This document shows, piece after piece, positions 17,257 to 50,722 of a stretch of DNA of 55,913 nt. Within the stretch, counting starts at the first letter, position 1. Every line of letters starts with the position of its first letter. The position numbers and the translations under genes were made by a program. The stretch comes from a virus (lineage: Duplodnaviria > Heunggongvirae > Uroviricota > Caudoviricetes), in IMG/VR virus record IMGVR_UViG_2778261121_000001, positions 1 to 55,913 of that record. One strand, written 5' to 3'. A model generated the notes under the pieces. That model made no database searches. It worked only from the letters and a program-made list of their open reading frames with translations, and was not told the DNA's origin.

Positions 17257-17401
17257 GTGGACTCCATCCAGTGTCAGAAAGAGTTGCGGCTGGCGATTGC
17301 CAGCCGCCTTTCTCGTTCCATCCTGGAACTGTGTCTTACCGACACATTGTCATCCTGACGCCGATAAGATACATGATTTAAAATGATAGGTAAACACTTA
17401 C

Positions 17402-17995
17402 TTACTGCTTGTTGTAAACAAAACCAATATCTTTCTTGTGAGGCATATCTGCTGCGGAAAAAGCTGCGATCTTCGCGAGTCGATCACATATTTCATTTTC
17501 ACGATGCCCGGCGTGACCTTTAACCCACTTCCAGCGAATATTATGTCGACTTGCAGCCTCATCCAGACGCTTCCACAGATCAACATTCTTTACCGGTTTT
17601 TTGTCAGAAGTCACCCATCCATTGCGTTTCCACCATTTCATCCACTGTGTCATGCCGTTTTTCAGATACTGGCTATCAGAGTGCAAAATAACGTTGCATG
17701 GATATTTCAAACGCTCCAGCCCGATAAGTGCCCCCATCATCTCCATGCGGTTATTGGTGGTGCTATGAAAACCATCTGAGAACTCGCGTTCCTCACCACG
17801 ATACTGGAGAACTATACCGTAACCGCCCGGGCCACCCGGATTTTTAAGGCAAGAGCCATCACTGAAGATTTTCACGGTTTTAAGCTGGGGATTGAACTCT
17901 ACGACAGGCGTTGTGGAATTGGTGCGGGGAGAATTTTTGTTTTTGGCTTTTTTGCGAGTTTTTGCTTGCGATCGGGCTGGTGTCTTCGTCGTCAT
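17402..17995 (-). CDS. rnhA: ribonuclease HI
   Basis: High similarity to E. coli RnhA ([30 protein letters not shown]); start set at MTTKTP with AGGAG Shine-Dalgarno. Confidence 0.85.
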
Positions 17996-19590: not shown

Positions 19591-19654
19591 CTTCTTTCTC
19601 GATAGGTAAGTGATTACCTATTTTTGCATTTGATTTTATGTCTGGCAATCAAAT

Positions 19655-24425: not shown

Positions 24426-24595
24426 AAAAACCTCACAAAGATAAGTAATTACTTATTCATCGTGTGAGTTTACATTCATTGAGAGAACAAGACCAGACAG
24501 ATAAAAAAATGGTGGCCATAGGCCACCAAAACGAATAGTCATTCCAGAGTTTTATTACGCATGTTAAATATACACAGATAGATAACTACCTACAA

Positions 24596-29140: not shown

Positions 29141-29174
29141 ATGTTAATAGATAAGCACTTACCTATCAATGAAA

Positions 29175-37943: not shown

Positions 37944-37998
37944 GTGTTTTTCCTTTTGTGGTTAGTGTTTACTTATTTTGTTAGTTATGAATAGGCGA

Positions 37999-38424
37999 TC
38001 AATCGTCTTGTTTAGGGAAAAACTGTTCAATAACTCTGTCAACGGCTGTGTCTATATGGAGTAGATGCCACACAACCATATCTTTGCTCCCCATGCCTTG
38101 TGTGAATATCACGTCATACTTACGCCATGCGCAGTGGAACCAATATGCTGAGTTATCAATTGGTAAATCCTCTCCCGCCTCTTTGAAGTATTTCAGCAGC
38201 ATTGCTTGCTCTGCCGTTGGCGTTGGACCTATTTCCTGAGCGTACATACGGATGAATCGCTGCCAGTCTGTCTCGTCGGGGGTTGGATCTGGTGGGGTCA
38301 TTTCTGCGATAGCGTTTCGTAGCTGATGCGCCCAATCAGGTTCAGGAAAGCCTTTTGCTACTTCATCATCAATAACATCCAGAGCCACGTTTGCGGCATC
38401 GTAGAGTTTCTTAATAGCTGTCAT
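37999..38424 (-). CDS. hypothetical protein (141 aa)
   Basis: ORF; 5'-leader motif at 38441-38460. Confidence 0.45.
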   Translation of the reverse strand: MTAIKKLYDAANVALDVIDDEVAKGFPEPDWAHQLRNAIAEMTPPDPTPDETDWQRFIRMYAQEIGPTPTAEQAMLLKYFKEAGEDLPIDNSAYWFHCAWRKYDVIFTQGMGSKDMVVWHLLHIDTAVDRVIEQFFPKQDD

Positions 38425-38474
38425 GTTTTCTTATCCTTTTAAACAAATTGTTTTCTTAATAAGATAATTGCGAT

Positions 38475-38498
38475 AAAAAAGGCGTCCAACTGGACGCC
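38475..38498 (-). terminator. intrinsic terminator downstream of the SPFH gene
   Basis: GGCGTCCA-GT-TGGACGCC followed by UUUUUU on the minus strand. Confidence 0.6.
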
Positions 38499-38516
38499 TG
38501 ATCTTCTTAAGTAGAG

Positions 38517-39347
38517 TTATTTCACTGTAATGAAAGGAGTGTTAGCGCCTTGAGTCATGTACTGCGGTAACTGACCATTCCATTTATTGATGGCTTCCAG
38601 TTCCATAACGTTCGGGTTTTGACGCAGAGCTTCACCGCGCAGACGAATGGCATCTGCTTCTGCCTGCGCACGAGCACGGATAGCATCAGCTTCACCATTA
38701 GCCTGTTCACGCAGCATATTCGCCTCAGCTTTACGTTGTTCTACTTCCTGCTGACGTTGCAGAGTACGCTGGTTAGCCGTTACTTTGGCGTTGATAGATT
38801 CTATGACGGTTTTTGGGTAATCAGGCTTTCCAACCCATGACAGGCTCAGTACCTCAATACCAACCGGAGACATCTCTTTCTGAATATCTTTCAGTGCGTT
38901 GTCCAGCAATTGTGCCTTACCACCGTCGATAAATGAGTCAGTGGTCATACGGCTGGCCAAACGGTTTAGAGAGTCGGCAATTTTCTGACGCAGATCTGAT
39001 TCGGTGATATCGTCTACGCCTTTGCGATAGGTCTGGAACACCGTCGTTACCTTGTCACGATTAACCAGATACGCAACGCCAATTTTGTGACCAATAGCAG
39101 TACCGTCACTCATCTGGAATGTGAACGGCTCGTCGTAGGTCTTCATTTGTTTGAAGGTCGGGAATACGTAAAGTTCGGTGTTAAGACCTGTCCATTGGCG
39201 ACCAACGCCAACCACTTCACCAATCCCTTTGTCTTCACCTAATTTGTTTACTTTGATGCCAACGTATCCAGGCTCCACGCGATCGCAGCCAGTAAGACCC
39301 ATTGTGCAAATAGCCGCCAGAGCAACTGCAAGTAAACCTTTCTTCAT
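38517..39347 (-). CDS. SPFH/band-7 (prohibitin/HflKC-like) lipoprotein
   Basis: Lipobox LTGC after a signal peptide; Ala/Glu/Arg/Gln-rich coiled-coil C-terminus; SPFH assignment by eye from the overall lipoprotein/coiled-coil layout. Confidence 0.6.
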   Translation of the reverse strand: MKKGLLAVALAAICTMGLTGCDRVEPGYVGIKVNKLGEDKGIGEVVGVGRQWTGLNTELYVFPTFKQMKTYDEPFTFQMSDGTAIGHKIGVAYLVNRDKVTTVFQTYRKGVDDITESDLRQKIADSLNRLASRMTTDSFIDGGKAQLLDNALKDIQKEMSPVGIEVLSLSWVGKPDYPKTVIESINAKVTANQRTLQRQQEVEQRKAEANMLREQANGEADAIRARAQAEADAIRLRGEALRQNPNVMELEAINKWNGQLPQYMTQGANTPFITVK

Positions 39348-39350
39348 TAC

Positions 39351-39551
39351 TTATTTCCCCTTTGCTTTGATTAATGAGTTAATAAACTTACGACCAGCAA
39401 TAAGACCGATTACAGGAGCACCAAAACCAACGATAACTCCAAACATGACTGCTAAATCACTCTTGGTAGAAATCAGCGACGGAACCAGTAAACCGTAGAT
39501 GAGAGCCACTGAAAGGCCTGTGGTTACTGCCAATAGATAGATTTTGATCAT
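39351..39551 (-). CDS. small two-helix membrane protein (66 aa), partner of the SPFH protein
   Basis: ORF in conserved start context, 3 nt upstream of the SPFH gene. Confidence 0.5.
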   Translation of the reverse strand: MIKIYLLAVTTGLSVALIYGLLVPSLISTKSDLAVMFGVIVGFGAPVIGLIAGRKFINSLIKAKGK

Positions 39552-39581
39552 GTGTTTTCCTATGTGGTTGTTATGTGAAAA

Positions 39582-39609
39582 TGATAAGTAAGCACTTATA
39601 TATTTTCAA
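39582..39609 (-). promoter_or_regulatory. sigma70-like promoter TTGAAA-N17-TATCAT overlapped by the palindromic operator-like motif
   Basis: -35 at 39604-39609 and -10 at 39582-39587 on the minus strand; TAAGTGCTTACTTA lies in the spacer. Confidence 0.45.
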
Positions 39610-39614
39610 GAGAT

Positions 39615-39637
39615 AAAAAAGGCGTCCTGTGGACGCC
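39615..39637 (-). terminator. intrinsic terminator downstream of the recA-like gene
   Basis: GGCGTCC-ACA-GGACGCC followed by UUUUUU on the minus strand. Confidence 0.6.
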
Positions 39638-39643
39638 TTGTGT

Positions 39644-41983
39644 TTACTCTTCTACTGACTCGGTGGGATTGTCTTTTGATCTCCGGTCGTCGATTGCCTG
39701 TAAAGCCGCAATGATTTCAGCTAGTGGCTTCTCCCGATACATCTCGACGATCTGTGATTTGGTGTATTTCTTGTCACCAATTTCTACTCGACCGCTGGCG
39801 TTCTTTGGCAGGTATCCTTCTTCCAGCATGTACTCGACGAGCGATTCGATAACGTCGAGGCCACGAGTAGGATCGAAGTAGAATTTCCAGGTGCATTTGC
39901 CATACGGTGGTGCAACTTTGTTTTTGATGCATTCTGCGCCTACGTCCTGGCCGATCTTCTCTTTACCATCCTTCATCACCGATGCACCAAGACGGATACG
40001 TACAGAAGCGTAGAACTTCGGTGAATCTCCACCTGGCGACGTAGTAGGGTCGCCAAACATTACACCGATTTTTGTGCGAACCTGATTCAAGAAGATGATG
40101 CAGGCGTTGTATTTGCGTGCCCACAAAGCCAGAGTAGGGAAGTTCGCACTCGTCGCACGAGCCAGTGCCGTATTGTCGTTCATGTTTAGCTGATCTTTGT
40201 CTTTGGCTGTGCCTTCAGCCATCTTTTCGAACTTCTCGGCTTTGGAGTTCGGAACCATAGACGCAAGAGAGTCAGCCACGATACAGATAGGTGCTGATTC
40301 GGGGATAAGCTCTTCATCACGAACCAATTTAAGTATTGTGCCGATCAACTCTACAGAGTCTTCGAAGGTATCTGGCTGCTTGTACACCCACTGACCGTCA
40401 TCCTCATCTGCGTTCAGGCCATTGGCTACAGCCAGGCCAACGTCAAAACTGTTTTCATGATCGAGGAATACCGCCAGACCATCTTGTTTTTGAGCGGAGA
40501 TCATCGCTGCTGTTGCAAGGAATGTGTTGTGGCTGATAATCCCGTTAGACCAGAAAGAGTGTGTTTCCGGCATCGCTACGTCGAACGTTGGTGCTTCACC
40601 TTCCTCAATAGCCACGACTTCGTCGTAGAACAAGTTAGAGCCAATTACCGCTGCCAGTTGTGCAAACAGATGCTCGTTAAAACGATTCTTTCTGCCAATG
40701 AAGGAGACATAGATTTCTCGCAGTTTGTCTATTCCGACACGATCGCCGCGGCCAATAACGTGGTCTACCAGAGCGTAGTCTTCACGGGTGGTCTTGGTGA
40801 GCGACTCGTAGAGTGATTTCACTAAGCCGCTGATGTGCGGAACATAGCCTGAGTAAGTGCGGTCAAAACCAATGTCCCGTTTGGTTGCCACTGATAAACG
40901 TGCCGGAGATTCGAAACCAATCGTTGACAGAAAAAGGTCGTAATTAGAGCCACTGAATGACAGCCGGTAATATGTATTTTCATAACCCGCGACGTGTTTT
41001 TCAGAGATAGTTGACGTAATCCCCAGATTCAGGAGCATGAGGCGAATTTGCTGTAGCAGCAGCCCACTCGCGCTCACAACCTCAATGCAGCGACCATCAT
41101 TGACGTGGCATTCCAGCTCAAAGTAGCCGCGAAGGAATGCAATTTGAGCCTCGCTATTGGCGCGACGCACACTCAACGGAACCTGCTTGCCAGCAGCTTT
41201 CTCATACTCCAGACCATATTCTTTAAAAAGCAGCGAACGCACCTCTTTGCTAAACAGCACATGGTCTTCCGAGCCGTTATGTTTTCTCGTAACTGGCATC
41301 TTGTCTGATACCAGCGAAATGAGGCGGTAGTACTCATCCTTGATGAAAGGATCTGTGTTAGAAAAATTCACTGAATTTTCAGAGGCCACGTATCCGTCAG
41401 CAATTAAATAGCCCATCAGTTTTGCGATATTGGCATCCAGGTGCTGATCGCCGAATTGATGTGTGCCAACCATTGAAGGAATCGTGTCGCCTACACTGAT
41501 TTTTTCAGCATGTCGCCAGACGACATTACCTAAGTCGTCAACCACACGGATTGGGTGACGGAACGTAGCCTCGATATAACCGCCTGATGCCAGCTTAATA
41601 CGCTTGAATTTGCGATGGTTGTTCCATGTCAGGTGTGAGGTCTTCTCTATCACGCCATTTTCATTGATGAGTCCAACGTTATGCTCTACATCGCGAGTAG
41701 TGCATGTCGCTTTGTACCCTTCAATCTCAAACAACTCTTTCACTGTTACCATTCCACGCTCCGTCAGCAGCATGGTGTCTGCGGTAACACATTTCCCCGC
41801 ACTTGGAGGACCGAATACTTCGACGATACGACCACATGGGAAGCCGCCATCGTAACGACCGGAAATAGCTTTGTTTAACGGAGGAAAGCCTGTGTCAATC
41901 CAATGAGTTACTTTCTGAATTTCGTCGTTGCTACCGATTTTCTTTTTCAGAGCAAGTGCCAGTGCGGATTTTCCTTTTGCCAT
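39644..41983 (-). CDS. RecA-like recombinase interrupted by an intein
   Basis: Exteins (64 + 293 aa) give a RecA-sized protein with Walker A GPPSAGK|TFLAT split by the intein. Confidence 0.8.
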   Translation of the reverse strand: MAKGKSALALALKKKIGSNDEIQKVTHWIDTGFPPLNKAISGRYDGGFPCGRIVEVFGPPSAGKCVTADTMLLTERGMVTVKELFEIEGYKATCTTRDVEHNVGLINENGVIEKTSHLTWNNHRKFKRIKLASGGYIEATFRHPIRVVDDLGNVVWRHAEKISVGDTIPSMVGTHQFGDQHLDANIAKLMGYLIADGYVASENSVNFSNTDPFIKDEYYRLISLVSDKMPVTRKHNGSEDHVLFSKEVRSLLFKEYGLEYEKAAGKQVPLSVRRANSEAQIAFLRGYFELECHVNDGRCIEVVSASGLLLQQIRLMLLNLGITSTISEKHVAGYENTYYRLSFSGSNYDLFLSTIGFESPARLSVATKRDIGFDRTYSGYVPHISGLVKSLYESLTKTTREDYALVDHVIGRGDRVGIDKLREIYVSFIGRKNRFNEHLFAQLAAVIGSNLFYDEVVAIEEGEAPTFDVAMPETHSFWSNGIISHNTFLATAAMISAQKQDGLAVFLDHENSFDVGLAVANGLNADEDDGQWVYKQPDTFEDSVELIGTILKLVRDEELIPESAPICIVADSLASMVPNSKAEKFEKMAEGTAKDKDQLNMNDNTALARATSANFPTLALWARKYNACIIFLNQVRTKIGVMFGDPTTSPGGDSPKFYASVRIRLGASVMKDGKEKIGQDVGAECIKNKVAPPYGKCTWKFYFDPTRGLDVIESLVEYMLEEGYLPKNASGRVEIGDKKYTKSQIVEMYREKPLAEIIAALQAIDDRRSKDNPTESVEE
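40526..41791 (-). mobile_element. intein with LAGLIDADG homing-endonuclease domain (422 aa)
   Basis: Starts with Cys after GPPSAGK, ends with HN before Thr; LAGLIDADG-like blocks (LMGYLIADGYV, FLRGYFELECHV). Confidence 0.7.
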
Positions 41984-44285: not shown

Positions 44286-44402
44286 GTGTTTCTCCTTGTT
44301 GTGATTTGGCCGATGGCGCTATGCGCGTTGGGCTTTCGTTCATTCGTGGCTCTTTCGAACTGTTAAATAATAGATCAGTACTTACTTATTATCTATCAAA
44401 AA

Positions 44403-50627: not shown

Positions 50628-50722
50628 GCGTTTTTCCTTTGTTCTCTAATGAGCGTTCAACTTCTTATATAAATATACCATTAACTATCGTAAGTGGTTA
50701 CTTATCATTAAGGCTGTTTTAT

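Follow-up and report, generated by a model that had tools for sequence, protein, structure and literature searches.

Why would an SSU5-like E. coli phage-plasmid carry, next to its RecA gene, a transcription unit devoted to an SPFH/Band-7 lipoprotein and a small membrane protein? The window, i.e. the whole stretch of 55,913 nucleotides analysed here, contains such a unit, with the two genes co-oriented and only 3 nt between the stop codon of the first and the ATG of the second (Table 1). The initial annotation had described it as an operon with its own promoter, bracketed by look-alike terminators, and all of these elements were found on the minus strand, either exactly where they had been placed or a few bases off. 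It had also put the operon between recombination genes, and this holds on the upstream side, where the neighbour is an intein-containing RecA gene, but not on the downstream side, where it is a DUF7238 gene to which no function is assigned. Our preferred explanation of the locus, detailed below, is a membrane scaffold of the SPFH type that is made of two components and would belong to the early programme of the phage.

Table 1. Features of the two-gene cassette, in window coordinates.
Feature	Position	Strand	Basis
Upstream intrinsic terminator; ends recA transcript; left boundary, first repeat copy	39611-39639	-	9-bp stem, 6 GC pairs, T-tract
Sigma-70-type promoter of the two-gene operon, TTGAAA-17-TATCAT	39581-39609	-	10/12 consensus positions
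Palindrome ATAAGT-N4-ACTTAT; candidate operator/regulon element	39584-39599	.	spans promoter spacer and start of -10
66-aa inner-membrane helical hairpin partner (putative), phrog_1130	39351-39551	-	ORF, PHROG match, AF2
276-aa SPFH/Band-7 lipoprotein precursor, phrog_200	38517-39347	-	ORF, Pfam, PHROG, AF2
Downstream intrinsic terminator; right boundary, second repeat copy	38472-38499	-	same stem as upstream terminator

The boundaries of the unit are sharp. Namely, the upstream terminator hairpin (39619-39639) folds with -14.7 kcal/mol (z -6.5) and the downstream one (38480-38499) with -15.7 kcal/mol (z -4.6), each being followed by TTTTTTATC. The 55.9 kb contain exactly two copies of the stem GGCGTCC..GGACGCC, as opposed to none in shuffled sequences. 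In pFra, the stem of the upstream terminator has changed in a compensatory manner (GGCGCCC/GGGCGCC). What is more, a close relative, E. coli D4 plasmid A, has an exact empty site, at whose junction the two terminator copies are joined precisely and a single terminator is left. Since exactly this unit is missing there, it is a discrete cassette. In pSTEC388_1, the partner is intact, while the SPFH gene is cut after approximately codon 60 and adjoins a type I restriction-modification system, and the Klebsiella relatives are without the cassette. In other words, the module that had been described as insulated is, by the empty site and this truncation, dispensable as well, and it resembles a moron-type cassette in carrying a promoter and terminator of its own and in being present or absent from one close relative to the next. 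The pair is not universal core in related phages, and no morphogenetic role is known for it. The base composition of the cassette is similar to that of its flanks (GC 0.42-0.50), giving no signal of horizontal transfer, and a search for non-coding RNA in it returned a single sub-threshold Rfam match (21.5 versus 229 bits).

The larger protein belongs to the SPFH superfamily by every measure used. The HMM search that the initial annotation had called for matched residues 23-209 to Pfam Band_7 (PF01145) with E=2.6e-30 and 106.2 bits, well above the cut-off of 23.6, and the protein falls into the lipoprotein family phrog_200 (E=3e-108). In the AF2 model (pLDDT 77), the SPFH alpha/beta domain (residues 23-176) is followed by a 65-residue coiled-coil helix (179-243), beyond which lies a C-terminal KWNGxLP motif. 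Foldseek aligned this model over its full length with erlin, prohibitin, HflK/C, stomatin and flotillin (E 1e-13 to 1e-8), the first three at about 1e-12 to 1e-13, and the family profile ranked prohibitin-1 highest (5e-10, positions 8-244), followed by HflK, HflC and QmcA. That said, this similarity of predicted fold and profile does not single out HflK/C, and the equivalog models TIGR01932 (HflC; 30.2 bits versus a cut-off of 134.4) and TIGR01933 (HflK; 18.7 versus 159.4) score far below their thresholds.

The N-terminus, MKKGLLAVALAAICTMGLTG-C21-DR, reads as that of a lipoprotein, in agreement with the earlier assignment. In particular, MKK-GLLAVALAAICTMG-LTG-C21 presents the n-region, the h-region and the lipobox of a signal peptide, and the heptapeptide CDRVEPG, including Asp22 at position +2, is invariant in 28 enterobacterial relatives. 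Because of the Asp at +2, the lipoprotein would probably be retained at the inner membrane. In E. coli Lol sorting, an Arg at +3, which is the residue present here, may weaken such Asp+2 retention. Further away, distant relatives have S, T, G or E at +2: a lipobox, defined as [LVI][ASTVI][GAS]C near the N-terminus, lies within the first 40 residues of 98 of the 150 best family cluster representatives, and only 16 of these 98 combine it with Asp+2, so that other members of the family may not all reside at the inner membrane. Purifying selection on the SPFH gene itself is very strong (dN/dS ~0.03).

The second protein had been annotated as a two-helix membrane partner of 66 aa, and this is what the AF2 model gives, namely two hydrophobic helices spanning residues 2-28 and 32-65 (pLDDT 77), along with a match to the membrane-protein family phrog_1130 (E=2.3e-25). 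Both of its termini are predicted to be cytoplasmic, which would place the 3-residue turn (29-31) at the periplasmic side; the invariant residues P24 and S28 lie beside this turn at the predicted periplasmic end of helix 1, and two more, G38 and P46, lie in helix 2. The suggestion that NfeD-like partners might be found here did not survive the HMM search: the window protein has no Pfam match at E<=0.01, eight members of its family gave only scattered noise matches at E<=10, none of them to NfeD, and the protein has nothing beyond its two helices. It is a member of an unnamed hairpin family and not of NfeD. Cleavage by signal peptidase I at the conserved LISA|K loop was also considered and rejected, since the -1 position varies across the family (T, M, S, Q, E or F). 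The partner gene is under purifying selection as well (dN/dS ~0.15), with a protein that evolves approximately 7 times faster than that of the SPFH gene and alleles that recombine independently.

How constant is the pairing? With the 66-aa protein as a query, tblastn matched SSU5-like phages only, and the wider partner family was recovered through a motif and an alignment profile. Genomes were scanned with an alignment of five sequences. The co-occurrence survey proposed at the outset then bore the pairing out: of 90 phage or plasmid loci, 85 have the partner motif upstream of the SPFH gene, as do 41 of 46 distant bacterial loci, and at 3 further bacterial loci the two are true in-frame fusions. 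Among the 150 best cluster representatives, at least 16 are fusions with the order hairpin, linker, signal peptide, Cys and SPFH domain; the 14 fusions that were aligned all have the lipobox Cys.

The SPFH family is also widely distributed. Homologues are present in 413 phage records; the family includes lytic N4-like, rV5-like, FelixO1-like, phiCbK, crAss-like and Lak phages and extends to giant viruses, and copies at least 90% identical occur in 389 plasmid records, including Y. pestis pFra/pMT1, which together with Salmonella plasmids of the same group has kept the cassette. The pair as such occurs in temperate phages (P1-like, P2-like and Stx-type) and in lytic ones (N4-like and rV5-like), in nearly every case surrounded by genes that are early or serve DNA metabolism. 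Namely, P1-like elements carry it in the dmt-ban interval, which in P1 belongs to the repressor-controlled (C1) ban operon; in the P2-like phage P88 it lies inside the early operon, in phiP27 in the early-left region, and in lytic phages next to DNA-metabolism genes. An equivalence with P1 Plp/Upl was rejected, as P1 plp is a different gene of 125 aa on the opposite strand and the pair sits between dmt and ban. Our literature search on the phage SPFH family found no experimental function, and the role of these proteins in phages has repeatedly been called unclear (PMC13239085, PMC8540360).

The regulatory region of the cassette points in the same direction as its location elsewhere. Promoter-like matches are not enriched in the cassette region as a whole (5 found versus 4.9 expected), and the block from -35 to -10 is near-invariant in all 46 of the SSU5-like upstream sequences retrieved, with divergence setting in in the flanking UTR. 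The palindrome within this block matches at 13 places in the window, where 1.4-3.6 would be expected; at least 8 of the sites lie 5' of minus-strand genes, including those for RNR, thymidylate synthase, SSB and a DNA methyltransferase, and the cassette promoter shares it with at least 7 other promoter regions of the window. The cassette accordingly appears to be part of an early DNA-metabolism regulon rather than of lysogenic conversion. Having its own promoter and terminators, it could also be expressed in the plasmid-prophage state, although the sharing of the palindrome with DNA-metabolism promoters points, indirectly, the other way.

Taken together, we tentatively propose, at somewhat less than an even chance, that the pair forms a periplasm-facing, prohibitin/HflKC-like cage at the inner membrane early in infection, possibly acting on FtsH-type proteostasis. 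The pair would be switched on together with the genes of nucleotide and DNA metabolism, and the 276-aa protein would be exported, lipidated at Cys21 and probably held in the outer leaflet of the inner membrane via Asp+2, with its SPFH domain lying flat against the periplasmic face. Many copies could then join through their long C-terminal helices into a closed ring or cage of the kind formed by prohibitin and HflK/C. As a dedicated partner of the 276-aa protein, probably at a ratio of 1:1, the 66-aa hairpin would supply the transmembrane fence that a lipid-anchored subunit lacks and would meet the SPFH domain through its own conserved periplasmic end. What such a cage would do, presumably corralling a patch of the inner membrane, is the least certain step. 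Prohibitin and HflK/C cooperate with FtsH-type proteases and are exposed to the intermembrane space or the periplasm (PMC2636767). By topology and family relationship one can speculate that the most likely client is an FtsH-type quality-control protease or its substrates, in which case membrane proteostasis would be shifted in favour of the phage during replication.

Could the pair instead defend the host cell against other phages? The initial annotation had raised exclusion or an abortive-infection-type function, and one can imagine that cage and hairpin keep the DNA of another infecting phage from entering or cause the membrane to collapse when such a phage infects. Early periplasmic or lipoprotein exclusion factors do exist in T4 and T5, and an accessory, removable cassette, the restriction-modification system beside the truncated SPFH gene of pSTEC388_1, the residence of the pair in variable regions of P1-like and P2-like phages, and the fast, independently recombining partner would all suit such a role. 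However, PADLOC-DB 2.0 at E<=0.1 had no match for the SPFH protein, the partner or the DUF7238 neighbour, and over 81 family members it returned only single, mutually unrelated weak matches, by which a known defence system is rejected. The dN/dS values of both genes, moreover, are well below 1, and a family that extends over all the lytic phage groups listed above is unusual for exclusion genes. With these negative searches, the many strictly lytic carriers, the early-operon sites and a promoter palindrome of the DNA-metabolism type, positive evidence for exclusion or abortive infection did not emerge, and we regard this explanation as unlikely.

Two further alternatives were considered. A membrane-integrity scaffold of a generic kind, acting without FtsH, could protect the inner membrane and the proton-motive force from the stress of infection, such as injection channels and holin build-up, until programmed lysis. 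The very broad occurrence of the family over phages and giant viruses and its association with early genes are consistent with this, as is the contribution of host HflKC to stress tolerance (PMC10434171); yet none of the evidence is specific to such a scaffold, which would also leave unexplained why a dedicated hairpin whose periplasmic end carries invariant residues is needed, and we consider it as unlikely as exclusion. Very unlikely, in our view, is a lysogenic-conversion lipoprotein that is expressed from the plasmid-prophage and alters the host envelope or the interaction between host and animal. Its precedent would be PM0222, which has been reported to act as a TLR1/2 agonist carried on OMVs and to contribute to virulence as a factor of its own (PMC9872710), and the cassette's own transcription signals and its retention in the Y. 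pestis and Salmonella plasmids could be read in this way. Against it stand the strictly lytic carriers, the early operons of other temperate phages together with repressor control of the P1 interval, the promoter element common to DNA-metabolism genes, and Asp+2, which in enterics argues against targeting to the outer membrane or OMVs.

Returning to the inner-membrane cage, the SPFH proteins of phrog_200 make up one of the larger protein families of phages, and the present analysis adds handles on them, namely a dedicated, conserved hairpin partner that in some genomes is fused to the SPFH protein, and a predicted periplasmic topology like that of prohibitin and HflK/C. A bolder generalization, which we put forward as doubtful, is that hairpin and SPFH lipoprotein make up an unrecognised two-component SPFH system that is widespread in phages and bacterial genomes and is sometimes produced as one precursor, to be split by Lsp. 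Phages would use it early to cage host FtsH or another inner-membrane machine and to reprogramme membrane proteostasis by this means. If true, the system would be to viruses what HflK/C and prohibitin are to cells. A 1.1-kb, two-gene cassette that is naturally dispensable in E. coli is a good test bed for the question of whether phages manipulate FtsH or membrane microdomains.

How, finally, does the pair compare with known systems? Pasteurella multocida PM0222, an HflK/C-like protein, is likewise an SPFH protein encoded by a prophage, while its reported role lies in host inflammation and virulence (PMC9872710). In the SPFH-NfeD operons (QmcA-YbbJ, YqiK-YqiJ, FloT-YuaF), a small membrane-protein gene also lies directly upstream, co-transcribed and sometimes fused, but the phage partner is without the NfeD OB-fold domain, and QmcA faces the cytoplasm, whereas the phage SPFH protein is predicted to be exported. 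T4 Imm and Sp and T5 Llp, the last a lipoprotein, are early-expressed, envelope-located accessory exclusion proteins; the phage SPFH pair, as a putatively early and envelope-located set of accessory genes, would resemble them in this, with no relationship in sequence or fold, and we know of no exclusion phenotype for the phage SPFH family. Closer are the prohibitin PHB1/2 ring and the prokaryotic p-prohibitins (SPFH4), given that prohibitin-1 is the best profile match and that the intermembrane space corresponds to the periplasm. Prohibitin forms a cage and partners the FtsH-type m-AAA protease (PMC2636767); identity to it is only ~15-18%, and the phage protein differs in being lipid-anchored, phage-encoded and accompanied by a hairpin. 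The E. coli HflK/HflC-FtsH complex, in turn, is built from a pair of paralogues, each anchored by an N-terminal TM helix, in contrast to the single SPFH gene of the cassette with its lipobox signal peptide and separate 2-TM hairpin. Nevertheless, HflK is the best single-sequence match among solved structures (E=0.007), and the complex shares with the phage protein, as modelled here, an inner-membrane SPFH domain facing the periplasm, a long coiled-coil helix and a C-terminal cap segment.

The arrangement read by the initial annotation, namely a promoter, two genes and bracketing terminators with a common stem, is present in full (see the table), and since the 55.9-kb window has exactly two copies of this stem, and shuffled sequences have none, we regard the observation as confirmed. 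Every gene in the surroundings lies on the minus strand, and the base composition of the cassette is in no way unusual. The placement between recombination genes holds for the upstream neighbour, an intein-containing RecA, but not for the downstream one, the DUF7238 gene. The intein, inserted after the P-loop (between GPPSAGK and C), is polymorphic in the SSU5-like phage-plasmid group, as it is missing from the 358-aa pFra recombinase and from several E. coli plasmids. The two ORFs of the cassette share one reading frame (TAA GTA ATG, 39347-39353), which could reflect gene fission, fusion or stop-codon read-through, or may be a coincidence, as other lineages overlap out of frame; a stop followed by one sense codon is also found in Ruegeria phage vB_RpoS-V10 (locus L095, 1654-1662). 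A 303-aa protein (P0018) encoded on one metagenomic contig combines the SPFH protein (100% identity over 82% of its length) with a DUF7238 domain; such a protein would result from a deletion taking out the downstream terminator and joining both neighbouring genes.

Features of the locus and intergenic copies of the promoter palindrome (window coordinates)
Feature	Position	Strand	Basis or context
RecA, 779 aa, LAGLIDADG intein within	39644-41983	-	ORF and domain search
Upstream hairpin terminator, AAGGCGTCC-ACA-GGACGCCTT, then TTTTTTATC	39619-39639	-	terminator search and folding
Sigma-70-type promoter, TTGAAA-17-TATCAT	39609-39581	-	consensus match at 10/12 positions
Ribosome-binding site, AGGAAA	between promoter and 66-aa ORF	-	precedes the 66-aa ORF
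66-aa ORF, hairpin partner	39351-39551	-	ORF call
276-aa ORF, SPFH protein	38517-39347	-	ORF call
Downstream terminator, AGGCGTCC-AGTT-GGACGCCT, then TTTTTTATC	38480-38499	-	terminator search and folding
DUF7238 gene	37999-38424	-	domain search
Palindrome sites	17386-17402, 19605-19621, 24440-24457, 29150-29166, 37960-37976, 39584-39600, 44373-44390, 50689-50705		intergenic, upstream of minus-strand genes

The cassette is discrete, dispensable and removable. The locus is 93-99% identical to SSU5-like E. coli phage-plasmids (phage CMS-2020a, PhiR41_1, Cyrano and plasmids such as NZ_CP058356), and of 5426 complete E. coli genomes, 195 have the full cassette on a plasmid. A further ~100, more distant copies (~76% at the nucleotide level) are chromosomal. 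The SPFH gene is found at 90% identity or above in 389 plasmid records, and the recA region is matched by 753 records. Y. pestis pFra/pMT1 and Salmonella plasmids of the same group carry the cassette, and the partner gene was found in phage SSU5. The supposed insulation of the module is borne out by relatives that lack the cassette and keep a single terminator, namely Klebsiella relatives and E. coli D4 plasmid A, where exactly the cassette is missing, the flanks are ~98% identical and recA leads directly to the DUF7238 gene. The sole terminator of D4 plasmid A has the loop of the upstream copy and the 3' flank of the downstream copy, the expected product of recombination between the two ~28-bp terminator repeats. 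In pSTEC388_1 (NZ_CP041426.1, 1-4400), the hairpin gene and promoter are still there, the SPFH gene is cut to ~60 codons, and a type I restriction-modification system (HsdM, HsdS) occupies its place; accessory or defence genes may insert preferentially at this site.

The assignment of the 276-aa protein to the Band-7 family was upheld by an HMM search (Pfam Band_7, E=2.6e-30), and the protein also matches phrog_200 'lipoprotein' (E=3e-108). It begins with a classic lipoprotein signal (MKK, then a hydrophobic core and L-T-G-C21, with Asp at +2), with the C-D-R-V-E-P-G segment invariant among 28 relatives that are 70-96% identical, and the gene is under purifying selection (dN/dS ~0.03). In the AF2 model (pLDDT 77), the predicted SPFH domain begins two residues past the lipidated Cys and is followed first by a helix of 65 residues (179-243), then by a short one and finally by a tail modelled with low confidence. 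Using Foldseek, the whole chain matches erlin, prohibitin, HflK/C, stomatin and flotillin cage subunits at E-values of 1e-13 to 1e-8. The sequence relationship to these families is remote: a single-sequence search reaches HflK at E=0.007, and an 81-member family profile finds prohibitin-1 best (5e-10), followed by HflK, HflC and QmcA.

An NfeD-like partner, which had been envisaged, did not emerge, as a Pfam search of the 66-aa protein matched no family. The protein matches phrog_1130 and is a helical hairpin (predicted helices 2-28 and 32-65) with a basic C-terminal tail, so that both termini should be cytoplasmic and the 3-residue turn periplasmic. Its gene is under purifying selection (dN/dS ~0.15), and recombination exchanges alleles of this gene separately from the SPFH gene. 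The gene (39351-39551) is mosaic in comparison with loci L029 and L050; against the latter, the SPFH gene has a dS of 0.05 and zero amino-acid changes, whereas the adjoining partner gene has a dS of 0.68 and a dN of 0.15, which places a recombination breakpoint between the two.

How far does this pairing extend? SPFH homologues are present in 413 phage records, both temperate (phiP27, Stx2a phages, P2-like P88, P1-like elements) and lytic (N4-like, 62-68% identical; rV5-like, 47%; Pseudomonas Bruynoghevirus and FelixO1-like, 37-38%), with more distant matches (25-31%) in the lytic group to phiCbK, Lak, crAss-like and Bacillus phages. BLAST with the 66-aa protein gave matches in SSU5-like phages only. 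A hairpin of the same size, aligned without internal gaps, lies directly upstream of the SPFH gene in P88, P1-like elements, phiP27 (where it is unannotated) and N4-like KpCHEMY26, and two genes upstream in 4MG. Four residues (P24, S28, G38, P46) are invariant, within a motif [LV]P-x-[LM][IV]S, and a partner profile search yielded 175 protein clusters, none with Pfam domains. The motif occurs upstream in 85 of 90 loci bearing the SPFH gene; of the other five, three belong to distant lytic phages, one is a contig cut short and one is unexplained. In a P1-type locus whose SPFH gene is 77% identical (IMGVR_UViG_2537562191_000026), the motif is absent from the 6 kb upstream, while the other 35 loci of its type do show it; divergence of the partner, a deletion or faulty assembly could be responsible. 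An exhaustive phmmer search with the SPFH protein gave 195 cluster representatives at E<=1e-30, and at least 16 of the best 150 have an N-terminal extension of 60-120 residues, recognisable in at least 12 as a hairpin with the same motif. The fusion order is hairpin, basic linker, signal peptide, SPFH domain, and the lipobox Cys is invariant in all 14 aligned fusions. The fusions also fix the topology of the partner, because its C-terminus runs into the cytoplasmic n-region of the signal peptide. At the DNA level, 41 of 46 loci from Dyella, other Rhodanobacteraceae and assorted MAGs have a separate upstream hairpin gene, and three have true in-frame fusions. By the Rosetta-stone argument, the fusions speak for a physical partnership of the two proteins, probably 1:1. 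The pair is a conserved unit well beyond the phage-plasmid studied here.

The -35 to -10 block is nearly invariant in all 46 retrieved SSU5-like upstream sequences, the neighbouring UTR being divergent. It holds a palindrome, ATAAGT-N4-ACTTAT, that overlaps the spacer and the -10 element and occurs 13 times in the window (allowing up to 2-3 mismatches; 1.4-3.6 expected), at some sites in the variant form ATAGGTAA-N4-TTACCTAT. Eight copies or more precede minus-strand genes at a distance of 14-130 nt; among the products of these genes are a DNA methyltransferase, thymidylate synthase, the large subunit of RNR, a gp32-like SSB, a CobS-like ATPase and two unknowns. The palindrome is a candidate for an operator or promoter element in an SSU5-like early regulon and, as it is common to nucleotide- and DNA-metabolism genes, the cassette seems to belong to their regulon. 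This fits the position of the pair elsewhere: in the early operon of P88 between cox and a replication gene, in the leftward early region of phiP27 ahead of xis-int, next to dUTPase, exonuclease, polymerase or ligase genes in lytic phages, and in P1-like elements between dmt/tRNA genes and ban, an interval that in P1 is the C1-controlled ban operon. The P1-like copies (L051, 5784-6828; L093, 5001-5828) encode SPFH proteins 77-78% identical to ours, whereas the genes found there in P1 itself (L094, 10652-14660) are plp, upl and tciABC, making the interval a swap site for membrane-protein cargo.

What might the pair do? The comparisons identify an exported, lipobox-bearing SPFH protein of prohibitin/HflKC type and the hairpin as its conserved partner. 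Expressed early, the lipoprotein would be retained in the inner membrane through Asp+2 and would assemble into a ring or cage, as does every structurally characterised full-length SPFH protein among the Foldseek matches, with the hairpins supplying a transmembrane fence, which a wall anchored by lipid would not itself have. Its client, more speculatively, could be FtsH-type membrane proteostasis. FtsH is universal in bacteria, in keeping with the breadth of the phage SPFH family. We favour this client because prohibitin and HflK/C, the two nearest characterised relatives, share the topology of the SPFH protein, and both modulate FtsH-family proteases (PMC2636767). Taken as a whole, this chain is tentative. 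A role in exclusion or defence appears unlikely to us, and a generic membrane-integrity scaffold is doubtful to the same degree. A function of the kind claimed for P. multocida PM0222 (PMC9872710), in lysogenic conversion or virulence, would be distinctly improbable.

The SPFH gene itself is common and already annotated, publicly as 'SPFH domain-containing protein'. Some family members (L001, L088, L090, L095 and further phage records) are labelled 'serine protease', 'SPFH serine protease', 'transposase' or 'transposase fusion protein'; the domain analysis lends no support to these labels. Papers on such phage genes call their role unclear or speculate on HflKC-like effects on lysogeny (PMC13239085, PMC8540360, PMC10269572, PMC4936722), and neither lipoproteins nor phages figure in a survey from 2009 of the prokaryotic SPFH subfamilies. 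For the dedicated hairpin partner, for its fusions and for the shared early-promoter element, we found no account in the searchable literature. An HflK or HflC equivalog and an SPFH-NfeD operon were ruled out, because their defining features were tested and are not displayed here; in particular, the protein scores far under the cut-off of the NCBIfam HflC and HflK models. The 276-aa protein is a member of the SPFH superfamily, and the cassette offers a compact, tractable system for studying the role of SPFH proteins in phages.
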